A program made the translations under genes and the position numbers. DNA of 64,000 nucleotides from Squalus acanthias. Its lineage: Eukaryota. The DNA is taken from the NCBI GenBank assembly GCA_030390025.1, contig CM059433.1, positions 11,842,001-11,906,000 of the forward strand. The letters run 5' to 3'. Positions 10,260-46,504 of the stretch are shown here, one piece after another. How positions within the stretch are numbered: position 1 is the first letter of the stretch; each line of letters begins with the position of its first letter. Below the pieces are notes generated by a model, which was not told where the DNA came from, ran no database searches, and saw only the letters and a list, made by a program, of their open reading frames with translations.

Positions 10260-12240
10260 ACAACAATGACAACTTGCATTTATTTAACGCTTTTAATGCA
10301 GGAAAAACGTCCCAAGGCACTTCACAGAAGCGTTATCAAACAAAAATTTGACACTGAGCCAAAGAAGGAGATATTAAGAGGTATAATTAAAAGCTTGGTG
10401 AAAGAGGTAGGTGTAAAGGGGGCTCCTAAGGGAGGAGAGAAAGGTGAAGAGGTGGAAAGATTTAGGGAGGGAATTCCAGAGCTTAGGGCCTAGGCGGCTG
10501 AAGGCACAGCTGCCAGTGGTGGGGCGAAGGGAGTATGTAAGAGACCAGAGTTGGAGGAATGCAGTGTTCTCGGAGGATTGTAGGGCTGGAGGAGGTTACA
10601 GAGATAGGGAAGGGCGAGGCTATGAAGAGATTTGAATATGAGCATGAGAATTCTAATTTTGAGGTGTTGGTGGAGTGGGAGGCAATGTAGGTCAGCAAGC
10701 ACAGGGACGATGGATAAGCAGGACTTGGTGCAGGTTCGGATACAGGCAGCAGAGTTTTGAATGAGTTCAAGTTTATGGAGGATGGGAGGCCGGCCAGGAG
10801 AACATTGGAATACTCGGATCTGGAGGTTGCAAAAGTGTGGCTGAGGGTTTCAGCAGCAGGTGGGCTGAGGCAGAGGTGGAGGTGGGCAAAGTTACAGAGG
10901 TGGAGGTCGGTGGTCTTGGTGATGGACAGGATATCATGTTGGATGCTCAGCTCCTGGTCAAGATTACGAAGAGTTGGGTTCAGCCTAAGACAGGCGGGGA
11001 GGGGGTGGCGAGGGCCCAAAGATGTAAACGAGGTTCAGGCAATTTCCACCCCAGTGGCTTCAATCTTCGCGATGTTTATTTGGAGGAAATTGCGGCTCAT
11101 CCGGGATTGAATGTCGGAAAAGCAGTCTGACAGCACGAAGGCAGTGGAAGGGTCGAGAGAGGTGGTGGAGAGGTTGAGCTGTGTGTTGGCAGCATATAAG
11201 TGGAACCTGACGCCATGTCTTTGGAGGACATCGCTGAGGGACAGCATGTAGATGAGAAAGAGGAAGGGGGACTCCTGAGGGAGGAAATGGTGTGGGGGGC
11301 AGGGAGAGAAGCCATTGCAGGAGATTCTCTGGCTACAATTGAGCAGGTAAGAGTGGAACCAAGACAGAGCAGTCCCACTCAGCTTGTCAATGGAAGAGAG
11401 GTGTTGGAGGAGGATGGTGTGGCTGACTGTGTCAAAGGCTGCAGTGAGGTTGAGAAGGATGAGGAGGGATAGTCCAACATGGTGACAGTCACAGAGGATG
11501 TAAACCGTGACTTTGAGTAGGGCCGTTCCAGTACTGTTACGGAGCAGAAATCGGATTGTAGAGGTTCAAACATGGAGTTGCGGAAAAGATGGACAGTAGT
11601 TTGGGAGGCAACAACACATTCAAGGACTTTGGAGGAAAAGGATGTTGGAGATGGGACATTAGTTGGAAAGGGTAGAGGGTTGAGGGTGGATCTTTTGAGG
11701 AGAGGGTGATGATGGCAGCTTTGAAAATAAGAGGGGACAGTACCTGAGAAGATGGAACCATTTACAACATCAGCCAGCATGGGGGCCAGTAAGGGAAGTT
11801 GACTGGTCAGCAGTTTAGTAGGAATAAATTCGAGAAAGCAGGAGGTGGATCTCATGGACAAGATGAGCTCAGAGAGGGCATGAGGGGAGAAACTATTAGA
11901 AAGATATGGGTTTAGGGGTAGGGCAGGGAAGAACCTCAGGGAAAGTTTGGCCTGGTGGGCAAGGGGAAAGAGGGATGCGTCACAGGCAGTTGAATGGATG
12001 GTCTCAATCCGAGTGACAAAGAAATCCATGAGCTCCTCGCGCAAGTTGTTGGAAGTGAGGGTCGAGTGGCGAGGGAGAGGGGTAGAAGGAGCTGGTTGGC
12101 AGTGGAGAAAAGAAGCCGGGGTTATCTTTGCATTCCAGGATGATGCTGGAATAACGAACAGTTTTGGCAGAGGAGAGCAGGGCTCAATAGTGTTTGATGT
12201 GGTCCAGCAAGATCTGGCGGTGAATGGCAAGACCAGTTGG
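10260..12240 (-). mobile_element. L2-clade LINE, 5'-truncated and degraded
   Basis: acaacttgcatttat 3' tail; RT remnants (FHLYAANTQL, SDCFSDIQS, IPTKLLT, SKVLECVVASQ) with frameshifts. Confidence 0.85.
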
Positions 12241-12394
12241 ACACCCTATACGTTCAGGTCTGTGCCCCTTGGACATGAGGGAGAGAAGGTGGGGGCCAAA
12301 CCACAGTGGAGAAACAGGGCGGGAGAGAGTAACAAACATTTTCAGAGCTCTATTCTCCAGCATCCAATTGAGCGTCAGCCGTGTTTGCTTTAAT

Positions 12395-13275: not shown

Positions 13276-13324
13276 CATTTCATTTAGCTTTTTTTGTGGC
13301 TTCTTTGTTGTAATCTGCAAGTAA
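13276..13324 (-). CDS. DCDC2C: Doublecortin domain-containing protein 2C, coding exon 2
   Basis: ttcctcag|T TAC TTG CAG ATT ACA ACA AAG AAG CCA CAA AAA AAG CTA AAT GAA ATG|gtgagt; the phase-2 start completes GA|T from exon 1, giving (D)YLQITTKKPQKKLNEM, matching the short exon 2 of DCDC2-family genes. Confidence 0.85.
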
Positions 13325-13578
13325 CTGAGGAAATATAAATGACATTTTTGTAAGATTGAACAGCATGGCAGATTAGATCAAGTTTTCAACCAACAGCAAG
13401 ACTGAAGGTATCTTATGTGTATTGGTTATTTTTAAGCATTATTGTGAAAAAGATCGTTACCCTTACAATAATATTTACTTGTGATTTTTGCTTCTAGCAT
13501 TTCTGCCCCTAAACATGTAAATGATAATTATTTCATTTTCCCCCAATTACTTCAGTTTATGTCCCTTTTTATCATGCA

Positions 13579-14045
13579 GTCAGCTGTGGCACAGTGGGTA
13601 GCACACTTGCCTCTGAGTCAGAAGGTTGTGGGTTCAGGTCCCACACCCATGAGACTTGAGCACATAAAGCTAGGCTGACACTCCAATGCAGTGCTGCACT
13701 GTCAGAGGTGCTGTCTTTCGGATGAGACGTTAAACCAAGACCCCGTCTACTCTCTCAGGTGGACGTAAAAGATCCCCATGGCCACTATTTTGAAGAAGAG
13801 CAGGGGAGTTATCCCTGGTGTCCTGGGGCCAATATTTATCCCTCAACCAACATATCAAAAACAGATTATCTGGTCATTATCACATTGCTGTTTGTGGGAG
13901 CTTGCTGTGCGCAAATTGGCTGCCGCGTTTCCCACATTACAACAGTGACTCCACTTCAAAAATAGTACTTCATTGGTTGTAAAGCGCTTTGAGACGTCCG
14001 GTGGTCGTGAAAGGCGCTATATAAATGCAAGTCTTTCTTTCTTTT
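13579..14045 (+). mobile_element. Full-length DeuSINE (SacSINE1-like)
   Basis: tRNA-like head with A box (tggcacagtgg) and B box (ggttcaggtcc), Deu core, 3' tail aaggcgctatataaatgcaagtc(tttc)n. Confidence 0.9.
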
Positions 14046-14369
14046 CTTTTTCGTTACCAGACTAACTTGACAATCCATTGTCAAAGAACTCCATCCAACA
14101 CAAGCACTCCAATGCGTTCTTTTTTGACAAACAGAACAAGGTAGCATATTTTCCTTAGATCTCCTTCCCAAAACCCTTATTCATCATACTTCAAGCAGAG
14201 GACCACTCTGTGCAAAGAGAAGTAGGTCGTTTATTTTGGGCAGGAGACCGGTCTTAGTAAGAATTGTGCTGATATAATAGTTATGAATTTATCTGTTTTA
14301 TAGCTGGTGGAACAAAGCAATATTTCAGTAGTATAGCAGAATGCAATTTACCTGATCCAATAAGATATA

Positions 14370-15304
14370 GGAGTGGGGCTTCCGCCAGTGCAATTCGCCC
14401 AAAATCAGCGCAAAAGATCGAGGAATTTCAAGCGCAAATTACGTCCGGCGCAAATCGAGCTTCCGCGATCTTTTGCGCCGGTTTAAAAAAAAACATCGCA
14501 CTGGAAGTCGGCCCTGCCCACAAAGCTGGCCACGCTCCCAGATCGAACTAATCGCCATTGGGAGTTTCCGCTAATTGTACCCGTTTGCAGGCCTTCGAGG
14601 AGGCTCTTAAAATTAAGCTGGGTTTTTTTTTAGACGCAAGGGCACTAATAGGCACCTGTTAAAAGCTTTTAAATATAAAAAAATATTTAATTTACTAAAA
14701 AAAAACTGACGACTGTGCACCTATGAAACAAGTAAATGGCTCTGTACAGTTTATTTTAAAATCATTTTCACTTATTGAAAATCAGGTTACTCACAGGTGG
14801 TGGACTAGACACTGATTAGAAAAGCTTATCTTGTGCGATAAATCCATTTTCAGCTGTATTAATAAAACTGTACCAGGTGCCCAGCCTAAACCTCTCCGCC
14901 TCGCTACCTCTCTATCCTCCTTTAAGACGCTCCTTAAAACCTACCGTCTTTCACCTGCCCTAATTTCTCCTTATGTGGCTCGGTGTCAAATTTTTTGTCT
15001 TACAATACTCCTGTGCAGCGCCTTGGGCCGTTTTACTATGTTAAAGGCACTATATAAATACAAGTTGTTGTTGTTGTTGTTGTTACCACTCTTAAATATA
15101 TCGAAGAATTTTTTTTCATGCAAAAATATTTTTTTCAATTACATTCAAAAAACGCTGCCTGATTGCGCTGGTCCATGAAACATTTTACATTCGGCGATAA
15201 TGCAAATGAGTTTGAGCGGAAACTTGAGCAAAAAATTCGATTCAGAAAACTAACGCAATTTACGCCCAGATCGCCGATTGCGTCCACAACGGAAACTCTA
15301 CCCC
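14370..15304. mobile_element. Harbinger-like MITE containing an L2 3' fragment (14882-15085)
   Basis: Ends ggagtggggcttccg / cggaaactctacccc, TSD ata/ata; internal L2 tail with (gtt)n. Confidence 0.7.
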
Positions 15305-15629
15305 ATAATGTGTATTTGGATATACAAGGTCAGGAGAGTGAACATTAATGATTTTCCACAGACATTTCTGTCATAAGTATTGAACTTAGAAAATACAACT
15401 CTGTCCACTCAATCAGTTGCAAACACTTCTGTGTCATAATTATGGTTTTACAAACTTACTTAGGGCTGTAAATATGTTGAATGCTTCTAAAGCATTTTTA
15501 TTTGTGGGTTAATTGGAATGAAAGGGAAGGTGTTGATGTCATAAACAGGCAGAAATCATTTTTTTTGTCTCTTTCCTGAAGTTTTAGGGAAAAGGGTTTC
15601 ATAATTCAAGCTCTCATCATGGGAGGTAG

Positions 15630-15825
15630 AAAGATTAACTGTAGTCGTCTGGCATTGTTCTCTGACTATTTATGCTGTGCCCATATGTATTTCTTCACTT
15701 CACCTAATGAAGGAGCAGCGCTCCGAAAGCTTGTGATTTCAAATAAAGCTGTTGGACTATAACCTGGTGTTGTGCGACTTCTCACTTTTGTCCACCCCAG
15801 TCCAACACCGGCATCTCCGCATCAT
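15630..15825 (+). mobile_element. Penelope-like terminal repeat fragment (family A) with mutated hammerhead core
   Basis: Near-identical to 35160-35319; core reads CTAATGA rather than CTGATGA. Confidence 0.8.
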
Positions 15826-15892
15826 GTACATTATTGGGAAGGGGAGATATTTGCAGTTTATGTTCCGATAAGACCAGTGTTGTTTCAACAGC

Positions 15893-15995
15893 TAGGGCGG
15901 GAAAGTGGAGTTGATGTAGTTCAGCCGTGATCTTACTGAATGGCGGAGCAGGCTCAAGGGGCCGTAAGGCCTACTCCTGCTCCTATTTCTAGTGT
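15893..15995 (+). mobile_element. CR1 3' UTR fragment
   Basis: gggcgggaaagtggagttga...tgaatggcggagcaggctc...cctactcctgctcctatt. Confidence 0.75.
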
Positions 15996-16100
15996 TGTTA
16001 GCAAATTGCCAATATTGCCAGTCTGTCATTACACATATCAACTAGTGGAGACCACTGGAAAATCAAATTTAAAACCCAAAATGTACCATAAAAATGCATA

Positions 16101-16605
16101 GGGGTGATTTTAACTTGTTGTGCTTGACGTTAATGGGGCAGCAACAGCCTCAAAATGGCATTGGTGGCCTTACCGCCCCATCAAGCCCGTCGATGCGGCC
16201 GGCGCCTTTTTGAGAGGGGGCCGCTGAGCCTGCCTGTTTCAGACAGTAGGCTCCTTTTCATATGCAAATCGGGGTCCTCGGGCAAACTATCGCTATTTTA
16301 GATTGGAACTGGTTAGGGTGGGCGCTGTTCATGCTCTGATCAGTTCCACCGACGCTGGGATGTTTCACTGGCAGCTCCAGCACGGAAGGTTGAGGCCACG
16401 ACTGGGAGCTAAAAATCACGTCGGGGTCCGGAACACACTATTGGATCCCGATATTTAAATATCGATGAGGGCCTTGGCCGCCGCCACCTTGAATCAGCGG
16501 CGATAAAATGTCCACGAGCGTGAACGTGTCAGGAGCGCAGTGGGTAGCGCCCAACCATCTGCCGTGCACGCCATTCCCGCTGGGCGAGCAGGGTTATAAT
16601 TGAGG
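16101..16605. mobile_element. GC-rich Harbinger-like MITE
   Basis: ggggtgattttaac start, gttataattgaggc end, CpG-rich interior like the other MITEs here. Confidence 0.55.
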
Positions 16606-17064
16606 CTGTTTACGTAGTACTAGTTTGTAATGTCGCTGTAATCCTGGTAATGTAGGAGTGGTATTTGGAGTTGTTACTATTTAATTTGTAAATTTAGTGG
16701 GTTTTTTGCGGTTAACAAATTGCCATTCCCAACAGAATTAGTTCATGTATTTGTTTATGAATTTAGCAATAAATTCTTAATCAAACCTACACTGGTTCTT
16801 TCCTGAATGAATTAATCATATTGCCTAACAGGTAGTTTGCAGAATTTGTCAGTACATTTGCAAATAATCTCTGTTACGGCATCAAAAAATTCTAGAAATA
16901 GGTTTAAAAAAATGCACAGAAACTGCTCAACATTCTTGCCGATGATCAGTTTGTCAGACACAATAGAATTAAGACGATCAAGCTTATATTGTACCAACCA
17001 AGCTTGGCACTGCTACATTCCTTGCGACACCACAAGGGTACCAATGTTACAATATAATACTCAC

Positions 17065-17351
17065 TCCAGGGTTTTAAACTTCTCCACTCCTGCCGCTACA
17101 TAGCTGGCTCCGTTCTCCAGATCATCCAGATCAAAGACTCTGTGTCCCTCCTTAGGAGTGTAGATGTTCCTGACTGCCCCAAAGGGTGCGTTAATGCCCT
17201 TGGTGACCTGGTTAAGGAAAGTGTCAAAGGTGGAGACTTGTTTGTTGATGAGAAACCTTCTGCCAGTGAAGAACGGATCCCCATTTCGGTAAACTATCAC
17301 ACTCTTAGCTGCTGGTGGTTGCGGGGGAGCTCCTCTTGATGCCGTGGCCAT
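17065..17351 (-). CDS. DCDC2C: Doublecortin domain-containing protein 2C, coding exon 1 (first DCX domain)
   Basis: MATASRGAPPQPPAAKSVIVYRNGDPFFTGRRFLINKQVSTFDTFLNQVTKGINAPFGAVRNIYTPKEGHRVFDLDDLENGASYVAAGVEKFKTL; Kozak gccATGG; donor GA|gtgagt. Family is clear; the paralog call rests on lying downstream of ALLC on the same strand. Confidence 0.88.
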
Positions 17352-17532
17352 GGCCTTTAATAACAATAACAATCATAATAATGATGCTAGAAATGTCTGC
17401 AGTCACTTTCATTCACAGTCACTGAGCTTAGCGTGGACCGTCAAGATTCTCTGTCTTCTCCATAAGGTCCCACAGTCAAATTGTGTGAAACACGAGCCAG
17501 TCAGCTTGTTTGTCTGCTACCTCAGTTTAGAC

Positions 17533-17546
17533 CTCACTATGGCAAC
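17533..17546 (-). promoter_or_regulatory. Candidate RFX X-box upstream of the DCDC2C ATG
   Basis: Minus strand GTTGCCATAGTGAG, one perfect GTTGCC half-site and one imperfect half, ~180 bp upstream of the ATG of a ciliary-family gene. Confidence 0.5.
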
Positions 17547-17864
17547 TGAAGGCAGCAGTCACTCAACCAAAAAATTAACTTTTCTGACTTGGGAGGAAAA
17601 TTTGTAACCTTGAAATAAAGCAAAACAAAACACCTTAGATTAAGAAAATGTTCCAGGCCAAATTAGATCAGGTTAATGTTTGTACATCAGATATCCGTTC
17701 AAACTAATGCATTTGAATGGTTAGTGTGGTATTAAACACCAAAAGCAATAATGAGTAAGTAAAACCACCTTTCAGAAATGCTAATAAACACAATCTCCAC
17801 ATACTCCGCATATTTTAGTCAGTTGTTTGCACACATGTGCATTAGTAATTATAGCTATCACGTT

Positions 17865-18360
17865 ACAACAACTTGTATTTATAAAGTGTCTATCACAGAG
17901 TGAACACTGCAAGACATCCCAAGGAAGTGACTGAGGGCATAGTCAAAGAGGTTCGTTTTGAGGAGACCTCTGCAGGTTGGGAGAGAGGTAGCATGACCTT
18001 GTGGGGCCAAGGTCTGAAGACTCTGCCACCGATGGGGGGTTGGGTGGAGGGAGGGGGGAGTGGAGGGGGAGGGGGTACACAGGAGATCAGAGTCAAAAGA
18101 GTAGAGGGCACACACTGGCACGTAGGGCTAGAGGTGGCTATGGAGGTAAAGTAAGGCAGGGTCATGGGGGGATTTATAAACAAGGAGTTGGAGAGCGGGG
18201 CGCTAATGGAGTTCAGCGAGGATAGATGTATAAGGTCAGCTTGGCTTTGTATGAGATAAGGTGCAAACAGCAGAGCTTTGGAAGAATTGGACTTTATACG
18301 GGAATGGAGTTAGAAAGGCCAGCAGACTTGTAGAAGTTGAGACTGGAGTGATGGAGGCGT
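17865..18360 (-). mobile_element. Old degraded L2 3' fragment
   Basis: acaacaacttgtatttata tail; similarity to the other L2 3' ends in the window. Confidence 0.65.
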
Positions 18361-19174: not shown

Positions 19175-19597
19175 CTAGTGATGGAAAGCAATTTCTGACC
19201 CGACCCCTAGAGCGGAGGTGTCCCGTCATGTTTTCCAGCTGCAAAACCTCTTTCTTTTATGAGGTGACCTTGGGACGATGGTGGCACTGAAGTGCCTTTC
19301 TCCTGGCTTACTTTGCTGCCCACTATATTATGCCCCTTGTCTGTTGGAAGGCATTCTACGGTATCCGTGTATCCATCCCTAAGCTTCGAACGTTTCTTCT
19401 TCTTTGTCTTCATCAAATCAGACAAGGCAATGGCACCGCCTCCTGAGAACTCAGCCATGGTTTGGGTTATGAATGAATCATCTCTGTAGATATGTGTATA
19501 CGTCATTTCTGAATATACGACTCTGGACTCAAGATCATCTGAAGGGAATTCTTTATAAAAGGGCTGCTGAGTTGAATTATATTTACTTGCAAATAAA
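19175..19597 (-). CDS. Putative exon of an unidentified spliced ORF (coding 19207-19597)
   Basis: Acceptor ttttctcctttatcattatttcatag|T, donor AG|gtaagg, 423 nt; open frame of 129 full codons to a TAG at 19207-19209; non-repetitive; no homolog recognised. Confidence 0.5.
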
Positions 19598-19629
19598 CTA
19601 TGAAATAATGATAAAGGAGAAAAGGTAAT

Positions 19630-21248
19630 GGCCCGGATTTTGCAGTCAGCGGCGAACGAATGGCGCTAGCCGTTCATTACACTTACACTTGCCCAGAGAC
19701 TTTCTGTGGGCTTTTGCACTGGAGCTTGCCAAAACAGCGCAGAGCCCTCTACAGGGGATCTGGGACCTGTGTGAACAGGGCAAGCAATGGTGTGTCTCCT
19801 TAACCAATCAGATTGAAAAATCCTTACTGAGACGCACAGGGGGGGGGGGGGATTTTAACCCCCAAAAACGGGTGGGTTCGGGTGGGAACTAAAAATGTAA
19901 AAAAAATCTCAAATTCAAACCCAACCCACCCACTTCCGGTTTTAATGGAGGCGGAAGTGGGGGGGAGGTGGGGGGGGGAGTGGCGACCAACCCGCTCCCA
20001 GGAGGTGGGTCGCTCATTTAAATATTTTAATGAGTCTGCGTGCCTCAGATTTTTTTCTCTCTTCCAGCTTTAACGCTGGCCAGCCAGGTTTCCCGGGCCT
20101 CAGGAAACCCGGCAGCTAAAGTAAGGTGAGGACTGCTTCATGGAACAGGTAAGCACTTTTCCAGCACTGCTTGTGGTCCAGGAGGAGCAAGAGTGCCTCC
20201 TCCCTGACTCCTCATCCCTACCAGCAAGCCTGCTAACCTCCCCAGCAATTGAACCTCAACAACCACACCCCCCGATCAGCCCCACCCCACCCGCGATCCG
20301 ATGCCCTCCCAATGTCCCCCACGGCCCCCCTGCAATCTTCTTCCCTGCTCCCCAATCTCGCCAGCCTCCCGCGATCTTCACCCCTCCTCCCCCGATCTCT
20401 CCGACCCACCCCCCCCCCCCGCGATCATCTTCCCTCCTCCCCGATCTCCATGATCCCTTCCATGATCTTCTCCCCTTCCTCTCTGAACTCTCCGGCCCCA
20501 CCCCACCCCCACCCATCAATGTCCCCTCAAACTGGCTGGCTGCAGCCAGGAAACGGAATCCAAAAATGGTAATCAGGTCCTGACGTTAAATTCAGTAGGA
20601 CCTGAGGGGAAACCCTTTCTTCCCGGTTTCCCGACGACAAAACTGCCCTCCTACCCCCACCACCCCACCCCCCCCCCTCCCCGCCTCCTCATTAATATCG
20701 GAGCAGCAGGGTCAGTCTGAACCAGGAAGTGTAAGTTAGAATAGTTAATTCGAAATCAAATCATGTACTGAAAGTGAAATAAAGAGAGGGAAAGAAAGAT
20801 GGGATTAAGAGAGAGATAAACGAAACAGAAAGAAAAAGTAAACTAAAATGTTTAATTTTAATATTTCAATTTTTTAAAATCTCTAACAATAATTAAAACC
20901 CGAGGAATGAGACTCCACACTTGTAAAAATTAATTTTCAGTGCCACAGATGTTGTTTGGCAGCAATTAAGACTTACCACGCCATTAAAAATGATTAGTTT
21001 GTTTAGTGGGTATCTATCACATAAGTACAGCAACCTCACGTCATTCCACGTGTTTCAATGCCAAGTCTCTCGGCGAGATACCGGTATCGCGCAGCTTCTG
21101 GAGGAGCAGGGCAACTCGGACAGCAACTTCCTGATCTCCGCGTTTAACTGCGCACACGCGGCCGCCGCCGCGAGTTGCTGTCCGATTTACTCTTTAGTAA
21201 TGGTGAGCACCGATAGCCTCGCCGTTATTTTTACTGCAAAATTCAGGC
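19630..21248. mobile_element. Harbinger-like MITE with a second MITE nested at ~19839-20705
   Basis: Outer ends ggcccggattttgcagt / actgcaaaattcaggc; the inner element starts g(n)attttaacccc, has a C-rich ccgatc interior and resembles 38603-39563. Confidence 0.72.
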
Positions 21249-21879
21249 GATTACTGTTGGGGGGATTTAGAAAATTGTCACCCCAATGGGTGAGAGTCCT
21301 GACTGGGAGTGAGATTTTGTAAAATTAGACCTTTTTTATAATACATTACTGACATCCACCTAGAACGTAATACGCATCTGTGAGGACTTCTTGTGTCAAC
21401 GTTCTCCATTACAATTGTCGATATCTGCCTTTTTAATGTTAACTGTCTGTGTAAAATTATTGCACTGTAATTACACCTTTCACCAGTGGCAGCACTGTGG
21501 CTCCTTGGCTTTGCATCTTTCAGCTCCTCAGCCTACACGACAGAAATATCTATATGCTCAAAGTCAACTCGACTTCTCCGCTTCCCAAATTGCTATAAGT
21601 TATGCTGATTAACGATACATAATAACATAAGATTTCAATATTATAATCAGAATAATGACAGAATGCATAACTATTAAAATAGAGATTGAACTGCATCTGT
21701 TCAATGGTCCAATTATCCCCTACCTTCTAACCCTGCTTCACCTGAAGTTTACGCTTATTTCCCCTGTGCAATGCCACAGGAGATTGACTAATGTTATATA
21801 TTAGTATAAATAAATTACATCTGGTTGACATCCTAAACAGTGAATGAAACATGACTTTGTGTTAGGAAATAACTTACCT

Positions 21880-22330
21880 GGGGGAGCTGGCTGGTGCAGT
21901 GAGTTAGATACTGGCATTTTTATCTCAGCAATCTAATATAACTCAGACTGATGAGATGAAAGTTTTCTCTATTCGCTGGCTGTAAGCACTCTAAGTAAAA
22001 ATAATTGGAACATTCTCAGTCCAATTACCTGTGGGCTCACAGCAGCCCCAAATCCAGCATTAATTAACACTAAATAGACATCTTATGCAGAGGAACCAGA
22101 GAATGATTGGTGTGGGAATTGAAAAAGAACTTGCACCAGTAGAGCAGAGTGTGTCCTACCAGAACAGAGGATCATTGCTGGGCAGAGCACATGATCTGTA
22201 TTCTGCATCTAACTGTACCGTGCCTAACCTGGGGGAGTGATGAGAATGTGCTTCAGGGAAGCAGAGAGATTCATCCCAAAAGTCTAACGTGCCTCACCTT
22301 GATGACCTCAGACCTCACAAACAAAAAATT
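21880..22330 (+). mobile_element. Ancient tRNA-derived SINE, LF-SINE-like
   Basis: ggggagctgg...cagtg head and collinear blocks (gaaagt, ggctgt, tctcagtccaattacctgtgg, aattaacactaaat, gcagaggaaccagagaatga) resembling the LF-SINE consensus as I recall it. Confidence 0.55.
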
Positions 22331-22644
22331 AAAAAATCACTTACTGGAATCACCACCATCTATCTCATAATCTGCATTTCCTTCCAATTAATGCTGTATG
22401 GAAGTAAGTTCCAACACTATCTCCTTCATAGGAATTAAGGGTCTCAGGTGACGAAATCCATCTCCACAGCCTCTGCAAGCCTCATGCTCAAATGCAATCT
22501 TACTTTTAGCGGTTTACTGGACTTCACTGAACTACTTTATCACACCTTTTCCTATGTCAACAGGCATTGAGGTTTGATCAATTCAAGGCGATTCCAAAGA
22601 TGGAGGCCTGCCTCCTTAACTCTCCTCCATAGTATATCTGGCCT

Positions 22645-23182
22645 TTTTTTTATTATTCGTTCATGGGATGTGGGCGTCGCTGGCAAGTCCAGCATTTATT
22701 GCCCATCCCTAGTTGCCCTTGAGAAGGTGGTGGTGAGCCGCCTTCTTGAACCGCTGCAGTCCGTGTGGTGAAGGTACTCCCACAGTGCTGTTAGGGAGGG
22801 AGTTCCAGGATTTTGACCCAGCAACGATGAAGGAACGGCAATATACTTCCAGGTCAGGATGGTGTGTTACTTGGAGGGGAACTTGCAGGTGATGGTGTTC
22901 CCATGCGCCTGCTGCCCTTGTCCTTCTAGGTGGTAGAGGTCGCGGGTTTGGGAGGTGCTGCCGAAGAAGCCTTGGCGAGTTGCTGCAGTGCATCTTGTAG
23001 ATGGTACACACTGCAGCCACGGTACGCCGGTGGTGGAGGGAGTGAATGTTTAAGGTGGTGGATAGGGGTGCCAATTAAGCGGGCTGCTTTGTCCTGGATG
23101 ATGTCGAGCTCCATGAGTGTTGTTGGAGCTGCACTCACCCAGGCAAGTGGAGAGTATTCCATCACACTCCTGACTTGTGCCT
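22645..23182 (-). mobile_element. LINE 3' end (CR1/L2/Jockey group, poly-A tailed family)
   Basis: KAQVRSVMEYSPLAW...IQDKAARLIG / SLHHRRTVAAVCTIYKMHC...SWNSLP RT C-terminus; 3' UTR ending gaataataaaaaaa. Confidence 0.82.
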
Positions 23183-23539
23183 TCAGCTCCACAAAACATG
23201 GCTTCCTTGTTTTCTCAGTTAAAGATACCATTATGCACAATATTATTACAGAGCTATTGCTATGGAGTAACTTACAAGGGTCAATTTCCAACTAGTTAAG
23301 CTATTTAAAATTATTTTGAAAATATTTTCATTTATTGGTTGAACTTACGGTCAGCAATTAATGACTATGAAAGAATATAGCCTACCACACAGATACAGCC
23401 TAGATAACCTCAATGTCAGACAGAATCATTCCAGTTTGTGTCATTAATTGTTCTGGGCAATTTTATGTTTATATAATTCTGTAGCCATACAATTATTGCT
23501 ACAATTATTTTTTGTAGTAATTGAGGAAAATTCTGTAAA

Positions 23540-24045
23540 ACAACAACAACAACAACTTGCCTTTATATAGTTCCTTTAACATAACAAAAAGGTCCCAATG
23601 TGCTTCACAGGAGCATAATCAGACAAAATTTGACACCGAGCCAGATAAAGAGATATTGGGACAGCTTGGTGAAAGAGGTAGGTTTTAAGAAGTGTTTTCA
23701 AAGAGGAGAAAGAGGTAGAGAGGCAGAGAGGTTTAGGGAGGAATTTCCATAGCTTAGAGCCTAGACAGCTGAAGGCACGGCCGCCAATGTTGGGGTGAAG
23801 GAAATCGGGGATGTACAAGAGGCCAGAAATAGAGGAACGCAGAGATCGCGAAGGGTTGTCGGGCTGGAGGAGGTTACAGAGTTAGGGAGGGGTGAGACCA
23901 TGGAGGGATTTGAAAACAAGGATGAGAATTTTAAATTTGAGGCGTTACTGGGCCGGGAGCCAGTGTAGGTCAGCGAGCACAGGGGTGATGGGTGAACGGG
24001 ACTTGGTGCGAGTTAGGACACAGGCAGCCGAGTTTTGGAGGAGTT
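23540..24045 (-). mobile_element. L2 LINE 3' fragment
   Basis: (caa)n tail, IGGRAFSCLGSKLW segment; matches 44650-46238. Confidence 0.85.
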
Positions 24046-24409
24046 GGATGCTCCAATAATTACAGTTTTTCTCTCTTTGTTTTGCAAATTAGATTTATGA
24101 TGCAAAAGCCAAACAGTTTGATTGCAATGATTACTTTCTGTTCATTATTATTTTAATATTTAAGTTATCTTTGATTTATTTTTCCCCTAAAGTTTCCCCA
24201 CATTGTACAGCTTCCTTATTCCCAGGCCTCTGCTAATGGCACTCTGTTAAGAGTGCTAAGAGGTGCAAAAGATTAACACAGGTGATTGATGCTCCAATTT
24301 CAAGGATGCCTAAAGCAATATGGAATTTAGGGCATTTGCCCTTCCAATGGCAGGATTCACATAGGGTAGAAAGTGATGCATGGACTCCTGTCTGTACAAG
24401 GTGGATTAC

Positions 24410-24646
24410 TTGGGGAGTTATGCCCGCTGTCACTGGCCAACATTTATCCCTCAATCAACATAACAAAAACAGATTATTTGGTCATTATCACATTGCTGTT
24501 TGTGGGAGCTTGCTGCGTGCAAATTGGCTGCCGCGTTTCCCACATTACAACAGTGACTACACTTCAAAAGTACTTCATTGGCTGTAAAGCGCTTTGAGAT
24601 GTCCGGTGATCGTGAAAGGCGCTATATAAATGTAAGTCTTTCTTTC
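24410..24646 (+). mobile_element. DeuSINE 3' half
   Basis: Matches the 3' half of 13579-14045. Confidence 0.85.
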
Positions 24647-26404
24647 TTAGTGTCAGAACTGCATGTTTGGCATGAAAATAGTTAAGACTTAAATCCCATT
24701 TTTCCTTCAATATTACTTTGTTTCTGCTGATCCTGATTTTGTTTTCCTTCTTGTGGGAAAGCACCTGGCCTCTGCTTGGCAACTCCTCACAAAAGGGCCA
24801 CTGTTATCTGAAAACAAGCTACGAGACAAATCGAGGGCGCTGAGTCACATCCTACCAGTCCATGCAGCGCATGGGATCTCAGTGCACGGTGCCATCATGA
24901 TGACTAAGGAACTGTGATCTTACTTTTAGAAACCCCCCCCAAAAAAGGCAATTGTTTGTTGACATGGCATGGAGTGGTGGGACAAGTTCCCAGTCTATGC
25001 TGTATCCGCATGGGGGGAGGCAGAGAAAATCTAGGACAAGCCCACCTGAGTTGCTCTCATACACCTCCTGGTGGCCACTTTCAGAACAAAATTGGCAGTG
25101 ACTCAGAAGCAGATCCTCTCTGATTGTGCCCTCAGCCAGGGTTTGCTGTATTCAACAGGGACACCTACAAGGGAGGGAAAAAAATCAAGGAAAAATAATT
25201 ACCTTTAAAAAAAATTGAAATCAATGATTTATTTAAAAGCTCACTTATTGTAAGTCAGGTACTGTGTCACTAATCATTTAAATATTTGTTTTATTTCCCA
25301 TTGGACTTGGTTGGAGCACTAAAAGTCTCAACTAAAACTGGAGGGAATGTTATTGCGGATCATAATTTTGAACATCAAAATATTGCATTAAAGGTAAGGA
25401 TTTTTTTTTAACCTTTTGATGAGCACCGCCTCCAGCACGGAGTGAGATAAAACCCTATGTCACTGCCACTCAAATGTTTCAATGTCACTCAATTCAAATC
25501 ATTCCCTCACAAACGCAAACCATCCCTCGCTACAAGTCAAGAAACCAGCCATAAGGCAAAGGAAGTCCACTCGCTAAATTTAGTTTCCTTGCCCACTGAA
25601 AATATACAATAAAGGCTCATAAAAACTGAGCTTGGCCACTCCTGGATGGGCTCATCCCCAATGAGTTATCTGCTTACTCCTGCTGGTGGCGATGTTTATT
25701 CTGCTGGCCATGATATTTTATCTATTTTATCTATATACAGAACTTCATCACTTGTGCATTATTTATCTATCCAACAAGTGGATGGCCTCCAGCAGTACTG
25801 TAAGAATCTATATGATTCTAACTATCCAACATGCATTCCTTGTTATAAACTTGGAGCTATACCCGTTGAAATAACAATTACTTATAGTAAACTTCGTATA
25901 ATTCATTAATTAGTTAACTTAGAAGTTGAGTATTTTCTATGCATTCTTTGCATTATATTCTTAGTCTGCACAATTTTAAAACAGCCATTAATGCGATTAA
26001 CATAAACAGATGAACAACGGAATTAAAAAAGCACAAACGGGAGTTTAAAGTGAACCATTTCACTAATGGCAGTGCACAGTGGAAATTACACTTCCCTCCA
26101 CACCCCCACACCCCCCCCCGCCCCCGCCCCCCTCCAATCCTGTGAGTTCTACATCCCTAAAGGTGCTACATCAAGTGGCAGTACCTAGATAAAGACCCCA
26201 GTGGATCAAACAGACCGTCAGCTTAATTTGTCATAAATATGAGCAAAATTCATTATCCTCTAACTCTTGTATTTTGGGTCTGGTCTGGGTTTTCGGGGTT
26301 CTGCTGATAATACGTAATTCAAACGTTGTGCGTGTATTTTATGACATGATCCCAATCCCTTAATCGGATTACAGTTTAATCCTGATACTTTCATAGGATA
26401 ATAT

Positions 26405-26620
26405 CATACAGCACAAAAGGAGGCCATTCGGCCCATCGTGTCTGTGCCGGCTCTTTGAAAGAGCGAACCAATTAATCCCACTGCCTCAGCTCTTTGCCCA
26501 CAGCCCTGCAAGTTTCTCCTTGTCCAGTATATATCCAATTCCCATTTGAAAGTTACTATTGAATCTGCTTCCACCAATTTTTCAGGCAGGGCATCCCAGA
26601 TCATCACAACTCGCTGTGTC
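26405..26620 (-). mobile_element. CR1 3' end fragment
   Basis: TQRVVMIWDALPE...; 3' UTR like 9610-10008. Confidence 0.8.
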
Positions 26621-27030
26621 ATACAAAATCCCCCCACCCCCACCCCCCTGAATTTTTTGAGATTTTTTGAGTTTCAAAAAAATTGAATTGTCCAATAAAT
26701 TGAAATAAATAACAACATAGTGAGAATTTAGTGCTAAGAAATGGAATCATGCTACGATTAGTAGCTGCACCAGTTGTCAGGCATGGGGCAGCATTCACTT
26801 CCCTCTTGTGTAATCTCACTGTGAGAGCACATCACCAGGTAGAGAGAGTCCTCTCGCTTTTCTTTCGCTTACAAGAACTTAAAAGATGCTCAGATTCACT
26901 TTTGACAGCGGCAGGTGATAGTTGCACGAACTGTGAACTTCCTCGTACTTACTGGACATTTTGGTGGGATTTCGGGAACTGCAGTCGAATTAATTGTGCG
27001 TTACATATGTCAACACATGCAATCCCGTAC

Positions 27031-27089
27031 CTTGAGGATAGCTTTTCCGGGCGAGGGCTTTTTTTCTTCCTTCCAATGCACGTAGACAT
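27031..27089 (-). CDS. Putative first coding exon of the unidentified spliced ORF
   Basis: ATG TCT ACG TGC ATT GGA AGG AAG AAA AAA AGC CCT CGC CCG GAA AAG CTA TCC TCA AG|gtacgg (MSTCIGRKKKSPRPEKLSS, phase 2); upstream acceptor after a (ct)n tract at ~27173-27179. Confidence 0.5.
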
Positions 27090-27274
27090 GAGTGTTCAGG
27101 TGGGTAACAAGAGAGTGTCTCCAGATTTGTTAAAAGACAGGCGAGAAAGAGTGGGGGAATTCAGGCTCAGGTCCTGCCCTTCAAGGTGAGAGTGAGAGAG
27201 AGAGAGAGAGGCAGAGATGTGACAGAATAGGTGGGGAAAATAATGAAACGCAGGGTAGCGCTGATCTCACTTAC

Positions 27275-27500
27275 TCCAGCCGTGTGATTGAAGGGCAGTG
27301 GGTTGCTGCCTGCGCGCCGCTTCGCTCGCTGCCCTTAGCCCCAACTCCCTGCTTGCTGCAGCCGCTCAGTGTTGGGAGTCAACTGCTGTCACTCCGCTTC
27401 CATTCCCCTGCTGATTTATTCCGACCCACACCAAGTACTGGCCCTGGGCAAACAGCGCACAGGCTCCCGACTTTCCTGCCTTCTATTGGTTGTTGTAAAA
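27275..27500 (-). promoter_or_regulatory. Candidate promoter and non-coding first exon
   Basis: Non-repeat GC/CpG-enriched patch (gcgcgccgcttcgctcgc), CCAAT on the minus strand at ~27485, consensus donor GA|gtaagt at 27274-27269. Confidence 0.5.
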
Positions 27501-27615
27501 ATGTTTCCCACAGCCGAGGGCCAAAAAGAGAAAACGTTTCAATGGGTTGTTTAACGAGAGCTCACTCATCTTACTTTTAATTCACTGGCTTTTTCTCACC
27601 TTCACGTTCTTTTAA

Positions 27616-28073
27616 GTGTCAGCTGTGGCTCAGTGGGTAGCACACTCGCCTCTGAGTCAGAAGGTTGTGTGGTTCACAGTCCCCACTCCAGGGACTTGAG
27701 CACATAAAGCTAGGCTGACACTCCCAGTGCAGTGCTGAGGGAGTGCCGCACTGTCAGAGGTGCCGTCTTTCGGATGAGACTTTAAACCGAGGCCCCGTCT
27801 GCTCTCTCAGGTGGACGTAAAAGATCCCACGGTACTATTTCAAAGAGCAGAGGAGTTCTCCCCAGTGTCCTGGTCAATATTTCTCCCTCAACCAACAAAA
27901 AGAGATTATCTGGTCATTATCACAATGCTGTTTGTGGGAGCTTGCTGTGCGCAAATTGGCTGCTGCGTTTCCCACATTACAGCAGTGACTACACTCCAAA
28001 AAGTACTTCATTGGCTGTAAAGCACTTTGAGACGTCCGGTGGTCGTAAAGGCGCTATCTAAATGCAAGTCTTT
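27616..28073 (+). mobile_element. Full-length DeuSINE (SacSINE1-like)
   Basis: A/B boxes, Deu core, L2-like tail. Confidence 0.9.
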
Positions 28074-28389
28074 CCAATGGTTTTTTTCTCTCACCCTCAT
28101 TCCTGTACTCGCTCCTGCCTTTCTCAATCATTCAGTCCTTTTCTCCTGCTCTCACCTCCCCGCCCCTTCTCTCTCTGGTTTCCCTTTTCCTTATTTACTC
28201 TCACTCAGACTCAATTTCTCTTCTCTCTGTTACTGTTCCCTTGTCATTTGCCCAGATCCTTATTCACTCCCTGCCCCAAAATGATTTGAGACTGTTCAAA
28301 CCACATTGCAGGAGTTAACCCAAGGGAATCAACTTGGCACTTTGAATAACACCAACAGTGGAACCCGAGTAATAATTGTTGGTGACATA

Positions 28390-28702: not shown

Positions 28703-29566
28703 ATTCTTACCCACTCTGCCCCTGAAATAATTTTTCCCAGCACCATCTCTGAGGAAGATTTCAGGTTTTCAAAAGCAGTGGTCAATTTTAGAAATGCTTG
28801 ATTTTAGTATTCACCCTCGGGTTCTGGTTCTGTGGTTGGCTGGGACTCAGGAGCAAAGACCAAAGGCCAGGGATATCATTACACAAACTGTGCACTGTTG
28901 AAATTAATCTCCACTGCAAAAAAAATACGACCACCTTTATAGCAAAGTAATACCAGTACAAAGTTTTATCCTCAACTCCTGTTCTCTGAAGGAGAGAAAC
29001 AACTATATGAAAACTGTAACTTTTGACATGATTTAACAATACGTAAAATGCTTTAAACATAAGTGGCTCGTGAGAGCTACAAGGTTAGATTTAGCAGGGC
29101 AATGCAGGCCCCTTTAACTATCTTGCAAAACCGGTTACAAAGTCTACTACATGCCTTACATAACATAATTAGCAAATCATTAATCTTGCTTTTTTTTAAT
29201 CAAATTTAGTGACCACATTTAGCCACTGAAACCAGACTGAGACGGACTATCCTGAAGCAGATAACAATTGTAAATAAAGAACTTCTTGGTCCACATTTGT
29301 ACAACCAGAGAAAAAGACCAGCTTCACTGCACAAGCTCTTCTCACGCAGAAGCTCTTACATGGATAGTACCTACTTCACATGCTCAGGGCCGCGCGACTG
29401 TTGCCGTTAATCTTGGACACAGTGCTCAGGTTTTCTTATCGTTAAGTCACGCCTGATAGACTAAGGTATCGATTCACTGATATCAGAAGGTCTGAAAATC
29501 ACTGAGACATGTTTTGGAGTGACGCTGTCAAAGAAGAAATATGCAGCACCTTTATCATTGGCCACT

Positions 29567-32189: not shown

Positions 32190-33455
32190 CTAGAGTTCTT
32201 TGAGGATGTAACGAGCAGGGTGGATAAAGGGGAACCAGTAGATGTAGTGTATTTGGATTTCCAGAAGGCATTCAATAAGGTGCCACATAAAAGGTTACAG
32301 CACAAGATAAGAGCTTCACGGGGTTGGGGGTAATATATTAGCATGGATAGAGGATTGGCTAACTAACAGAAAACAGAGAGTTGGGATAAATGGGTAATTT
32401 TCCAGTTGGCAACCAGTAACTAGTGGGGTGCCACAGGGATCAGTGCTGGGGCCTCAACTATTTACAATCTATATTAATGACTTGGATGAAGGGACCGAGT
32501 GTACTGTAGCCAAATTTGCTGATGATGCAAAGATAGGTGGGTTAGCAAGTTGTGAGGAGGACACAAAGAGTCTGCAAAGGGATATAGATAGGTTAAGTGA
32601 GTGGGCAAAAATTTGGCAGATGGAGTACAATATGGGAAAATGTGAGGTTATCCACTTTGGAAGGAAGAATGAAAAAGCAAATTATTATTTAAATGGAGTG
32701 AGACTACAAAATGCTGCGGTACAAAGGGATCTGGGGGTCCTAGTGCATGAAACACAAAAAGTTAGCATGCAGATACAGCAAGTAATTAGGAAGGCTAATG
32801 GAATGTTGGCCTTTATTGCAAGGGGTATGGAGTATAAAAGTAGGGAAGTTTTGATGCAACTTTACAGGGTGCTGGTGAGACCGCACCTGGAGTACTGCGT
32901 ACAGTTTTGGTCTCCATATTTAAGGAAGGATATACTTGCATTGGAGGCAGTGCAGAGAAGGTTCACTAGGTTGATTCCTGAGATGAAAGGGTTGTCTTAT
33001 GACGAAAGGTTGAGCAGGTTGGGCCTATACTCATTGGAGTTTAGAAGAATGAGAGGTGATCTTATTGAAACATGTAAGATTCTGAGGGGGATTGACAGGG
33101 TTGATGCTGAGAGGATGTTTCCCCTAGTGGGGGTATCTAGAACTAGGGGGCATAGTTTCAGGATAAGGGGTCGCCCATTTAAGACGGAGATGAGGAGGAA
33201 TTTCTTCTCTCAGAGGGTCGTGAATCTTTGGAATTCTCTACCCTGGAGAGCTGTGGAGGCAGAGTCACTGAATATATTCAAGGTGGAGATTGACAGACAT
33301 TTGAACTACAAGGGAGTCAAGGGTTAATAGGAGAGAGCGGGAAAGTGGTGTTGAGGCCCAGATTGGATCAGCCATGATCTTATTGAATGGCGGAGCAGGC
33401 TCGAGGGGCCGATTGGCCGACTCCTACTCCTGTTTCTTATGTTCTTATGTTCTTA
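32190..33455 (+). pseudogene. CR1 LINE ORF2 reverse transcriptase, 3' ~1.25 kb
   Basis: YLDFQKAF, GVPQGSVLGPQLF, KFADD, RPHLEYCVQFWSP; stop/frameshift upstream of ORF 32428..33327; (ttcttatg)n tail. Confidence 0.95.
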
Positions 33456-34129: not shown

Positions 34130-35319
34130 GATTTCCCATAAACTGATACATACTCGATCGACAGTTCCGACGGGCCACAGCGAAAAATCGCATAGACCTC
34201 CTCAGAAGACGAACACGGGACACAACCAACAGGGTACCCTACGTCGTCCAGTACTTCCCCGGAGCGGAGAAACTACGCCATGTTCTTCGCAGCCTTCAAC
34301 ATGTCATCGATGACGACGAACACCTCGCTAAGGCCATCCCCACGCCTCCCCTACTCGCCTTCAAACAGCCGCCTAACCTCAAATGGACCATCGTTCGCAG
34401 CAAATTACCCAGCTTTCAGGAGAACAGCGACCACGACACCACACAACCCTGCCACGGCAACCTCTGCAAGACATGCCAGATAATGGACACAGATACCGTC
34501 ATCACATGTGAGGACACTACCCACCAGGTACATGGTACATACTCATGTGACTTGGCCAACGTTGTCTGCCTCATACGTTGCAGGAAAGGATGCCCCGGAG
34601 CATAGTACATCGGCGAGACCATGCAGACACTGCGACAACGTATGAACGGACACCGCGCAACAATCGCCAGGCAGGAGTGTTCCCTCCCAGTCGGGGAACA
34701 CTTCAGCAGTCAAGGACATTCAGCCTCCGATCTTCGGGTAAGCGTTCTCCAAGGCGGCCTTCGAGACACACGACAACGCAAAATCGTCGAGCAGAAACTG
34801 ATAGCCAAGTTCTGCACCCATGAGGACGGCCTCAACCGGGATCTTGGGTTCATGTCACGCTACATGTAACCCCACCTGACGTAGAGTCAACCAGACTCGA
34901 GTCGTCGTTGGCTTGTTCTCTCTACACAGATGCAGCCGGACCTGCTGTGATTTCCAGCAAAAAAAGTAAAAAGTTTTTTGTTTTCCCTACAGACCCCAGC
35001 ATCTGTCACATTTGACCCCTTGTGACCCCACCTCATTGTCTTTGTTGTATTTTGCTATCGTCTTTGATGTAATGTCTTCCTGACTGACCTGGTTGGACAC
35101 CATCCACACCTTTGATTGCCGTGATTGTCTCTCTGCCGAGGTGTGATAAAGGGCAGTTAGAAAGATTAACTGTAATCATCTGGCATTGTTCTCTGACTAT
35201 ATATGCTGTGCCTATATGCATCTCTTCACTTCACCTGATGAAGGAGCAGCGCTCCGAAAGCTTGTGATTTCAAATAAAGCTGTTGGACTATAACCTGGTG
35301 TTGTGCGACTTCTCACTTT
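34130..35319 (+). mobile_element. Penelope-like element, 5'-truncated (GIY-YIG endonuclease region plus terminal repeat, family A)
   Basis: PCHGNLCKTC linker, YIGETMQTLRQRMNGHR...VGEHF...EQKLIAKF...GLNRD; one in-frame stop; the 3' repeat holds a hammerhead motif. Confidence 0.92.
35231..35267 (+). ncRNA. Minimal type I hammerhead ribozyme motif (family A, intact)
   Basis: tcac-CTGATGA-a-ggagc(agc)gctcc-GAAA-gc-tt-gtga: helix I tcac/gtga, helix II hairpin, palindromic helix III AGCT. Confidence 0.8.
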
Positions 35320-37926: not shown

Positions 37927-38316
37927 GGGTGGTGGTGGGGGGGGGGGGGGGGAATGGAGGGGGGTTGGGGAGGGTGGGGGGGGCGTTGGTGGGGGGGTTG
38001 GGGGGGGGCATGTGGTGGGGGGGTAGGTGGGGGGCATGTTGTGGGGGGGTTGGGGAGGGTGGGGGGGCATTGGGGGGGTTGGGGAGGGTGGGGGGGCGCG
38101 TTGTGGGGGGTTGGGGTAGCCAGGGGGGGGGTTGGGGGGGTGGGGGGGGGCGCGTTGTGGGGGGTTGGGGTGGGGGAGGGGGGGGCATTGTGGGGGGTTG
38201 GGGGCGGTGTGAAGGGGGTGTGGGGGGGAGGGGGTTGGGGTGGGGGAGGGGGCGTTGTGGGGGGTTGGGGGGCGGTGTGAGGGGGTGTGGGGGGGAGGGG
38301 GTTGGGGGGGGGAGTG
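37927..38316 (+). repeat. G-rich minisatellite / low-complexity tract
   Basis: Degenerate ~28-30 bp units of ggggggttggggagggtgggggggcgttgt. Confidence 0.9.
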
Positions 38317-38602
38317 GGAACAGGTGTCTGGCCAAAGGAACAAGAGAATGCAAACCAAATATGGGGTCAGGAAATAAGAGTATTTCAAGGCCTGTAGCGA
38401 ATCCATACTCACCACATGTTCTGACAATCTATTTCAGAGGCTGATGATTGTAACAAGAAACACTTGGTACCATCTAGCCTAACTCCATATCTTGTAGTGA
38501 TGCCCATTAGTTCTCCCCTTCCTTTATAGCTCAAATAACATATCCACTCAAACAGAATCCATTCTAAAGACCTCAATGATATCACCTTACTTCAAAGTCT
38601 AT

Positions 38603-39563
38603 GGCCGGAATTTTCCCCTAAAAAAAAGGGTGGGTTTGGAGCGTGGGGGCAGTTAAATTGTTAAAAATGGGATTCCCGACCTGATCCTGCCTACAAACCC
38701 GCCCACTTCCGGTTTTGCCGGGGGCGGGCAGCCAACCTACTGCCAGGGGGTATTACCTTAATTTAAATATTGTAATGAGGCTGGAAGCCTCTTTTTTTTC
38801 ACCTCCATTTTGTGTTTAACTGCCTGTGGACGGGTTTCACACAATTCGTGAAACCCGGCAGTTAAAGCGAGGCGGGGGCCGGTGCATCCAGGAGGTTAGT
38901 GGCTTTATACCCACCTCCTGGATCCAGGGTCCCTGCCTAACCCACCCCCCACGATCGGAGACCCCCTACCCCCCAGGCCTCCGATTCCCACCAGAAGGCC
39001 TCCCCACCAACCCACCGATGATGTTGAAGCCGGCCATAATCCTCCGGTGTCCAGCCCCGATCCTCCCTCCTCTCCTGAACGATGCTCCAGCTGACACCCA
39101 TTGCCGATCCTCGATCCTCCGATCACTGGCTGACCCACTCCCCACCCCCCGCCAATCCCCAATCCCACCAATCCCCGGCCGCCACCCCCCTCCCCGATCC
39201 TCCAACCGCCCATCCCCCACCGATCACCGATCTTCTGGTCGACCCCTGACAGCCCCCCCCCCCCCACGCGATCCCCGAGGCAGCCGTTCTCCGACACCGC
39301 CGCCCCCCCCCCCCCCCCCCCCCCTGCCGCGATCCATCCCCTGGACCGACCCCTCGCTCCCTCTCTGCAGCTGAGGCCTACCCGCCCACAGCCAGCCAGC
39401 CTCTCAAGCTGGCTGGCTGCGGGCGGGAATCCGAGGCCTCACATTCAAATCAGTCCCTGCCGTTAAAGTTGGCCGGGCCTGGGGTAAGCCTGCCCTCCCG
39501 GGTTTCCCGACTGCCTCGGAGGCCCCCTGCCCCCAACCCGCCTCCCTTGAGAAAATTCCGGCC
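38603..39563. mobile_element. Harbinger-like MITE
   Basis: 13-bp perfect TIR ggccggaattttc...gaaaattccggcc, TSD tat/tat. Confidence 0.9.
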
Positions 39564-39629
39564 TATGCTTTTGTGAAAAAGCCCCAGTTCCCTGAAGATA
39601 TTCTGATGCTAAGAGCCCGAAGGCTCACT

Positions 39630-39875
39630 CTGGTGGATTCCTTCTCTGAACCTTCTCCAGGGCCTCAACATCCCCCACTCATGTGGGGGCCAAAACTGAG
39701 CAACAGTATTCTAGATGTGGCCGTACCAAGGCCTTGTGTAAGGCAAGTATAAATAGTATTTTATATTTAACGGTCCAGGCTATACACTCCAACACTCCAT
39801 TAATTTTCTCTACACCTTTGCAACACTGGTCATGGACCTTCAAATGTTTCATGAACTATGATCCCCAGGTCACCT
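39630..39875 (-). mobile_element. Old CR1 RT fragment
   Basis: Reverse strand reads ALVRPHLEYCCSVL, similar to the CR1 RPHLEYCVQFW motif. Confidence 0.65.
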
Positions 39876-40159
39876 GAAAAACCAGCGGCCAGCAGTTGAC
39901 AATTGAGGGTCGAGGGGCTGGGGGGGGGGGGGGGCGGGGTGCGGATACCTGAGCCACCCACTGACACCCAAGGCCCGTCTGATGCAATTTTAAAGCAAGC
40001 CTATAAATAAGTGAGCAGCACACCCACGGATTTCTGGTGGGAGGCTGCTTAACTGTGCAAAACAGGGTCTTACATCAGTTCCCATTTTCAGGTACAAATG
40101 GATGCAGAGTGATCCAACCAGTGGTCCTTAAAGGGACCGGTGGTGGCTGCTTCAGAAAA

Positions 40160-46238: not shown

Positions 46239-46504
46239 CTTCTTCTTTCACTCATAGCCACATGTGTAATTGCCATCACCAATCAAAAACCTCATTGATT
46301 GTTTGATGTATGCATGTGTCATGACACACATTATGGGCTGCATACTGACATTGGGTTCTACTGCATGGCACCATAGAAGTTTACAGCACAGAAGGAGGAA
46401 GTTCAGCCCATTGTGTCTGTACTGGCTCTTTGCTCGAGCAATCCAAAATGCTGCCTCCTGGGCATCTCATGGTCATCAAAGGTAATTCTCACTTTTTTTC
46501 CTCA

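Follow-up and report, generated by a model that had tools for sequence, protein, structure and literature searches.

A transcribed region upstream of DCDC2C in Squalus acanthias is probably an alternative non-coding 5' exon of that gene

The window analyzed here, a stretch of 64,000 nucleotides (64 kb) from Squalus acanthias, carries on its minus strand the last coding exon of ALLC and, downstream of it, the first coding exons of a DCX-domain gene (Table 1). This downstream gene is DCDC2C: it contains a DCX domain, belongs to a clade apart from DCDC2A, and adjoins ALLC. Its main ATG, at 17351, has a strong context, and its first coding exon shares 88–99% identity with proteins of sharks, rays, and chimaeras. 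In a 25-row DCX tree, in which the window row fills 38% of the columns and which includes neither a named DCDC2B row nor a tetrapod 2C row, window exon 1 grouped with seven chondrichthyan rows, Amblyraja 2C among them (support 95/92); this group was sister to a teleost clade containing Salminus 2C, and the DCDC2A rows were placed apart. The assignment to DCDC2C thus rests on the ALLC neighbor and on the clustering with two rows named 2C. Human DCDC2C is likewise a DCX-domain gene adjoining ALLC.

Table 1. Features of the locus, in positions of the window.
Feature	Position	Strand	Basis
ALLC, last coding exon (upstream neighbor)	62040–62183	minus	Pfam PF03561, E 1e-11
Leader exon piece, followed by GTAAGA	28711–28746	minus	9/12 residues as in the Heterodontus DCDC2 extension; tblastn E 3e-4
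Likely leader exon split by a SINE-like repeat (~27615–28074), donor after 27600	27600–28100	minus	flanks match the Chiloscyllium extension
Transcribed region, probable DCDC2C leader exon, with donors after 27275 and 27031	27031–27621	minus	RNA contigs X1, X5
Upstream ATG 27089, weak context, to donor 27031	27031–27089	minus	sequence; junction deduced from contig ends
DCDC2C leader exon, 119 nt, ends MRATQ then GT	25046–25164	minus	splice scan and RefSeq extensions
Candidate cassette exon, 423 nt, 129-codon open frame	19175–19597	minus	splice signals and ORF
DCDC2C, first coding exon, first DCX domain (acceptors 17608 and 17354)	17066–17608	minus	Pfam PF03607, E 2e-20
DCDC2C, coding exon 2	13276–13324	minus	join 13324–17065, depth 1035 in X1; spliced loose ends in X5

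Upstream of DCDC2C, a preliminary description had proposed a spliced unit encoding either a lineage-restricted basic protein of 149 residues or an alternative DCDC2C N-terminus. The data that bear on this unit come from four of 12 sequencing runs, examined as contigs, a form in which rare transcripts are lost. Two of these runs, X1 and X5, were classed as RNA (tissue unspecified) on the basis of spliced DCDC2C joins and loose ends; the other two, X11 and X12, are DNA relatives that share alleles and are therefore not independent. The joins and pieces considered are those among the ones listed, beyond which there are more than 11,000 further joints. The contigs carry no strand, and their loose letters are known by count, not by sequence.

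The region at 27.0–27.6 kb is exonic in the RNA of two studies, on the upstream side of DCDC2C. In X1, record 8 covers positions 27273–27621 at depth 39; in X5, record 32 covers 27029–27302 at depth 138 and ends in 28 loose letters. Across 27029–27621, contig depth in the two runs ranges from 39 to 230, and bin depth reaches 42 (X1) and 114 (X5), compared with 0–11 in four intronic bins; the DNA runs cover the same region at near single copy. The GC-rich patch from which the unit had been proposed to start is present (58% GC and a CpG observed/expected ratio of 0.58 at 27250–27500), as are its CCAAT box (27489, minus strand) and its GTAAGT donor (27274). That this patch belongs to a distal leader of DCDC2C agrees with the exonic RNA and with its position among the leader exons used by RefSeq models, but the CCAAT box is unsupported as a marker of the transcription start, because the X1 contig continues upstream of it to 27621. 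Similarly, the (ct)n tract that had been read as the acceptor of a short intron is there, but the intron itself is read through by X5 record 32. The exon that follows, with its ATG at 27089 and a phase-2 end before the donor after 27031, can be read as described.

The ends of the RNA contigs give an indication of where these donors lead. For each donor–acceptor pair (seven acceptors for donor 27275, five for donor 27031), the expected end of the alignment was computed. Only two acceptors, 25164 and 17608, both of which start with GT, account for the observed ends at 27273 and 27029. Acceptors 19597 and 13324, in contrast, predict ends at 27275 and 27031, and the acceptors of the proposed short intron, 27178/27173, predict 27274; the junctions 27275>27178/27173 and 27031>19597 suggested by the preliminary description accordingly do not fit these contig ends. 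In addition, the end of X1 record 8 overlaps the start of X5 record 32 (27302) by 30 letters, which points to a single branch point common to both runs. Donors 27275 and 27031 are therefore likely to splice to 25164 or 17608, the partners being deduced from contig ends; no direct join from either donor is among those listed for X1 and X5, and neither 27031>19597 nor 27031>13324 has a supporting join, piece, or loose end among those listed.

On the acceptor side, contig boundaries in the region of the first coding exon of DCDC2C lie at 17610, 17356, and 17328/17327. When six donors were tested against the two contig starts, those of X1 record 2 (17356) and X5 record 26 (17610) fit donors 25046 or 19175. 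The proposed junction 19175>17608 is thus compatible with a contig start, but it shares this fit with donor 25046, and no spliced piece from 19175 is among those listed. X5 record 26 has 16 loose letters, fewer than the 27 or so that a simple branch should leave, and its end at 17328 fits a donor ending in AAG (27600 or 27031) joined to 17354. In intron 1, a GTAAGT donor coincides exactly with the end of X5 record 25 (15627–15460, depth 11.6), near the weak match of a Scyliorhinus protein that is considered below.

Other leader exons were identified from N-terminal extensions in RefSeq models. Many of the 102 DCDC2C-group proteins from sharks, rays, and chimaeras have short extensions ahead of the conserved start. 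Three distinct extensions of RefSeq DCDC2/DCDC2C models map to the window, at 25060, 28746, and 28100/27600, and would join three bases ahead of the main ATG; in two of them the match is immediately followed by GT. The sequence MRATQ at 25060 is identical to the extensions of Cetorhinus (XP_078397812.1) and Carcharodon (XP_041043349.1) and shares four of five residues with Heterodontus. It ends the 119-nt exon 25164–25046, whose acceptor is the strongest of the 592 AG sites in 27030–17609, which is the single hit of a pattern scan, and which, if spliced to acceptor 17354, reads on in the DCDC2C frame. This exon has no match among the contig pieces listed; the depth of its bin would imply about 390/640 for it, by arithmetic that is weak. 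It was absent from the preliminary description, although it lies between the two exons proposed there.

The piece at 28746 is the best match for the Heterodontus extension (XP_067878364.1) in a six-frame scan of the window, and is known from sequence alone. The Chiloscyllium extension (XP_072417220.1) matches the 28100/27600 flanks at eight of 13 residues at fixed positions, and at nine when the most favorable of 17 cut points is chosen; unlike in the RefSeq Chiloscyllium model, a SINE-like repeat interrupts this exon here, and X1 record 8 passes unspliced through donor 27600. The extension of Pristis finds its best place at 25060 among GT-followed matches, yet only three of its five residues are identical, and those of Scyliorhinus, Stegostoma, Callorhinchus, and Narcine have no convincing place within the 64-kb window. 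Several species have many accessions for one identical DCDC2C protein, which suggests alternative UTRs. Since the RefSeq extensions map to 28746, 28100/27600, and 25060, the proposed unit likely lies mid-way in a partly conserved DCDC2C 5' leader. In contrast with these extensions, the N-terminus that would start at ATG 27089 occurs in none of the 102 proteins and, in the coding parts compared, the RefSeq models contain neither the 27089–27031 piece nor exon 19597–19175.

As for the latter exon, its anatomy is as described. Joined in silico to 27089–27031, it gives an ORF of 149 codons with its stop at 19212–19210 and a donor after 19175; the acceptor at 19597 is in phase, and the exon is not a repeat, with no second copy in the window and approximately single-copy depth in two DNA runs. 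According to approximate splice matrices, the acceptor ranks 7th of 592 AG sites and the donor 3rd of 506 GT sites in 27030–17609. Chance expectations were derived by copying the 9.4-kb intron 400 times with a Markov model and 400 times with block shuffling, with thresholds fixed after the candidate was known. An in-phase acceptor that equaled or surpassed 19597 and led into 128 or more open codons arose in 11/400 Markov and 3/400 block-shuffled copies, and in 0/400 of either kind when a donor as good as 19175 was added; under lenient settings the counts were 173/400 and 113/400 without the donor, and 29/400 and 15/400 with it. This anatomy is thus uncommon by chance (0–7% per intron), but similar cases are to be expected when introns are scanned in large numbers.

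Expression and conservation give a different picture. The sole RNA contig over the exon among those listed, X1 record 4 (19757–19432), continues unspliced across acceptor 19597 with a depth of 4.09, comparable to the 3.8–9.1 of intronic pieces; it is oddly divergent, with 18 other letters, 15 gap letters, and 28 loose letters. No spliced RNA piece over 19597–19175 is among the pieces listed for X1 and X5. In the DNA relatives, pieces over the exon, which include flanking intron and whose CpG content is similar to that of several comparison pieces, carry 36 substitutions in 539 positions (X11, 6.7%) and 47 in 761 (X12, 6.2%), compared with pooled values of 4.5 and 4.7% in the seven other pieces listed per run (Fisher p 0.03 and 0.09). 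Divergence over the exon is thus no lower than that of intron, so that no purifying selection is visible in these pieces. Gaps are absent over it in both X11 and X12 and occur in 6/7 and 7/7 of the other pieces.

That the protein has no recognized homolog was borne out for its 128-aa part from the second exon, which was used in all searches; the 19-aa first part is too short. No homolog of this frame was found in 5.8 billion clusters (70–224 aa and 225–2000 aa), a collection in which many sharks and rays are represented by RefSeq proteins, nor in Pfam or the Atlas, where its recognition score was 1420 (2300 is the level reached by 91 of 100 known-family proteins). The single match among 1.84 billion representatives (E 1e-5, 29% identity, 10 stretches) was rejected as repeat-driven: the target is a repetitive 2916-aa protein resembling a bacterial adhesin, and the match is a sum over repeats. 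A second candidate, from JGI metagenomes (20 residues, 60% identity, one of 213 candidates), was rejected as chance. Missing homologs are equally expected for non-coding DNA, and the 129-codon frame is likely that of a cryptic exon without protein constraint.

Taken together, these results favor the reading that 27.0–27.6 kb serves DCDC2C as an alternative non-coding 5' exon, likely joined via 25164–25046 to 17608/17354 and likely skipping 19597–19175; we would give it roughly three chances in four. Transcripts from 27.3–28.8 kb would then be DCDC2C mRNAs, in which leader exons would splice through 25164–25046 to 17608 or 17354. Through these predicted joins, ATG 27089 would open a uORF of 23 codons via 25164 or 30 via 17608; joined directly to 17354, it would give 38 codons, out of frame and overlapping the main start. 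Ribosomes would either scan past this weak ATG or translate the uORF of 23–30 codons and reinitiate at ATG 17351. The leader would in this way tune DCDC2C translation, and the product would be the full-length, two-domain DCDC2C.

A cassette exon at 19597–19175 that is minor and real, and that acts at the RNA level, is a rival reading in keeping with the ranks of its splice sites. Its inclusion would give a longer uORF, leading to NMD or blocking reinitiation, with the peptide incidental. The contig starts at 17610 and 17356 are compatible with donor 19175, and NMD would hide such transcripts from contigs. However, the exon has no spliced piece among those listed and no excess conservation, and the residual of its X5 bin is −18, where a depth of 524 would add about 313, a weak comparison as repeats dominate this bin; we regard this explanation as unlikely. 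We consider it very unlikely that 27031>19597 is used to make the 149-aa protein itself, a basic and probably disordered product of a young, fast-evolving ORF in the DCDC2C leader, in a tissue or stage that was not sampled, such as late spermatids. In its favor, the 129-codon in-phase frame, bounded by a good acceptor and a good donor, has no counterpart elsewhere on the window's minus strand, the simulations reproduced it in 0/400 (strict) or 15–29/400 (lenient) copies, the exon is gap-free in both DNA relatives, and X1 record 4 has unplaced gap letters whose number, 15, is a multiple of three. These points are opposed by the stop of X5 record 32 at 27029 rather than 27031, the unspliced, intron-like cover, the divergence not below that of intron, the lack of homologs, the low Atlas recognition, and the weak ATG context. 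Moreover, a stop codon upstream of several splice junctions is the layout that triggers NMD, and such would be the position of this stop with respect to several DCDC2C junctions if transcripts were spliced on from 19175. The lineage-restricted gene of the preliminary description thus finds no support in contig ends, RNA cover, conservation, or the 102 proteins, and there is only a slight chance that a shark-restricted basic protein is made at one germ-cell stage, with one promoter toggling between a nuclear basic and a flagellar microtubule protein.

A DCDC2C lacking the first DCX domain, made by splicing 27031 directly to exon 2 (13324), had also been put forward. The phases do match and the frame is open through exon 2, and a RefSeq model without the first domain exists in Scyliorhinus torazame (XP_072354810.1). 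This isoform, however, predicts a contig end at 27031 where 27029 is observed, its N-terminus is the one absent from all 102 proteins, and that of the Scyliorhinus model maps weakly to intron 1 (15636–15559, E 0.015) and not to 27 kb; we find it hardly credible. A transcript without the first domain may arise by another route, from intron 1 near 15460.

The arrangement favored here, an alternative non-coding DCDC2C leader, resembles a general class in vertebrates, that of alternative 5' UTR exons with uORFs. In these leaders, too, several upstream exons lead to one coding exon, and weak upstream ATGs precede a strong one; the difference is that translational control is, at this locus, what we infer. 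With de novo or orphan genes the candidate shares a short basic ORF without homologs, but it lies inside a leader intron of another gene, on the same strand, and has no spliced transcript among the listed contigs. Among the listed papers on DCDC2C, shark DCDC2, shark orphan genes, and testis uORFs, no title or opening line of an abstract treats this locus for cartilaginous fish. Two papers touch on the gene: one places human DCDC2C in the distal sperm flagellum (PMC13515645, citing Jumeau, 2017), and the other, a survey of the DCX family, held that DCDC2C arose only once the marsupials had split off (PMC1550402).

If the 149-aa form were true, it would represent a de novo gene that can be dated, lying within the leader of another gene and reached by a simple splice switch. 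On the reading that we favor, in which the transcribed region is a DCDC2C leader, the gene model of DCDC2C is refined to include a leader of about 11 kb that is partly conserved across sharks and rays, and the uORFs of this leader could tune the production of a microtubule protein.

Two contigs from X1, a sequencing run judged to be RNA, deserve comment. One of them (record 3, 17327-17949, depth 85) reads through the DCDC2C acceptor at 17608 as far as 17949, beyond which 91 contig letters do not fit the window. The position of a fair acceptor, 17969, does not match this end. The other (record 4, 19432-19757) differs from the window by 5.5% and contains 15 gap letters, whereas the remaining X1 pieces are mostly 0-1.4% different; it may derive from a haplotype that has diverged, from a further copy lying elsewhere, or from a different species present in the sequenced material.

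Within intron 1 of DCDC2C, a contig from a second run judged to be RNA, X5 (15627-15460, minus strand, depth 11.6), ends precisely at a GTAAGT donor that follows 15460. The Scyliorhinus torazame model lacking the first DCX domain (XP_072354810.1) maps weakly to this region (15460-15636) on the same strand. A minor internal promoter at 15460-15636, giving rise to a one-domain DCDC2C, is possible; a conceptual 15460>13324 junction contains no in-frame ATG up to the end of exon 2. In the Narcine RefSeq model (P0130), the first DCX domain is truncated, and the MRVHQ extension connects to the middle of this domain.

A SINE-like repeat (27590-28074), present in at least eight copies across the window, is inserted within a probable DCDC2C leader exon whose Chiloscyllium counterpart codes for a DCDC2 N-terminal extension. 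Five long frames, judged by their translations, resemble decayed fragments of LINE and Penelope-type retroelements. The G-rich, high-GC, low-complexity tract at 37934-40000 is probably repetitive sequence rather than a promoter.

Long frames in the window
Feature	Position	Strand	Basis
Long frame	10377-12245	-	translation
Long frame	32398-33324	+	translation
Long frame	34147-34866	+	translation
Long frame	46486-48699	+	translation
Long frame	52366-53874	-	translation

A DCDC2C-type gene adjoins ALLC in this cartilaginous fish, and its first exon (17066-17351) is 88-99% identical among chondrichthyans, whose proteins are mostly labeled DCDC2 in RefSeq. A 2006 paper dates the origin of DCDC2C after the marsupial split (PMC1550402); the presence of such a gene beside ALLC in a cartilaginous fish is at odds with that dating.
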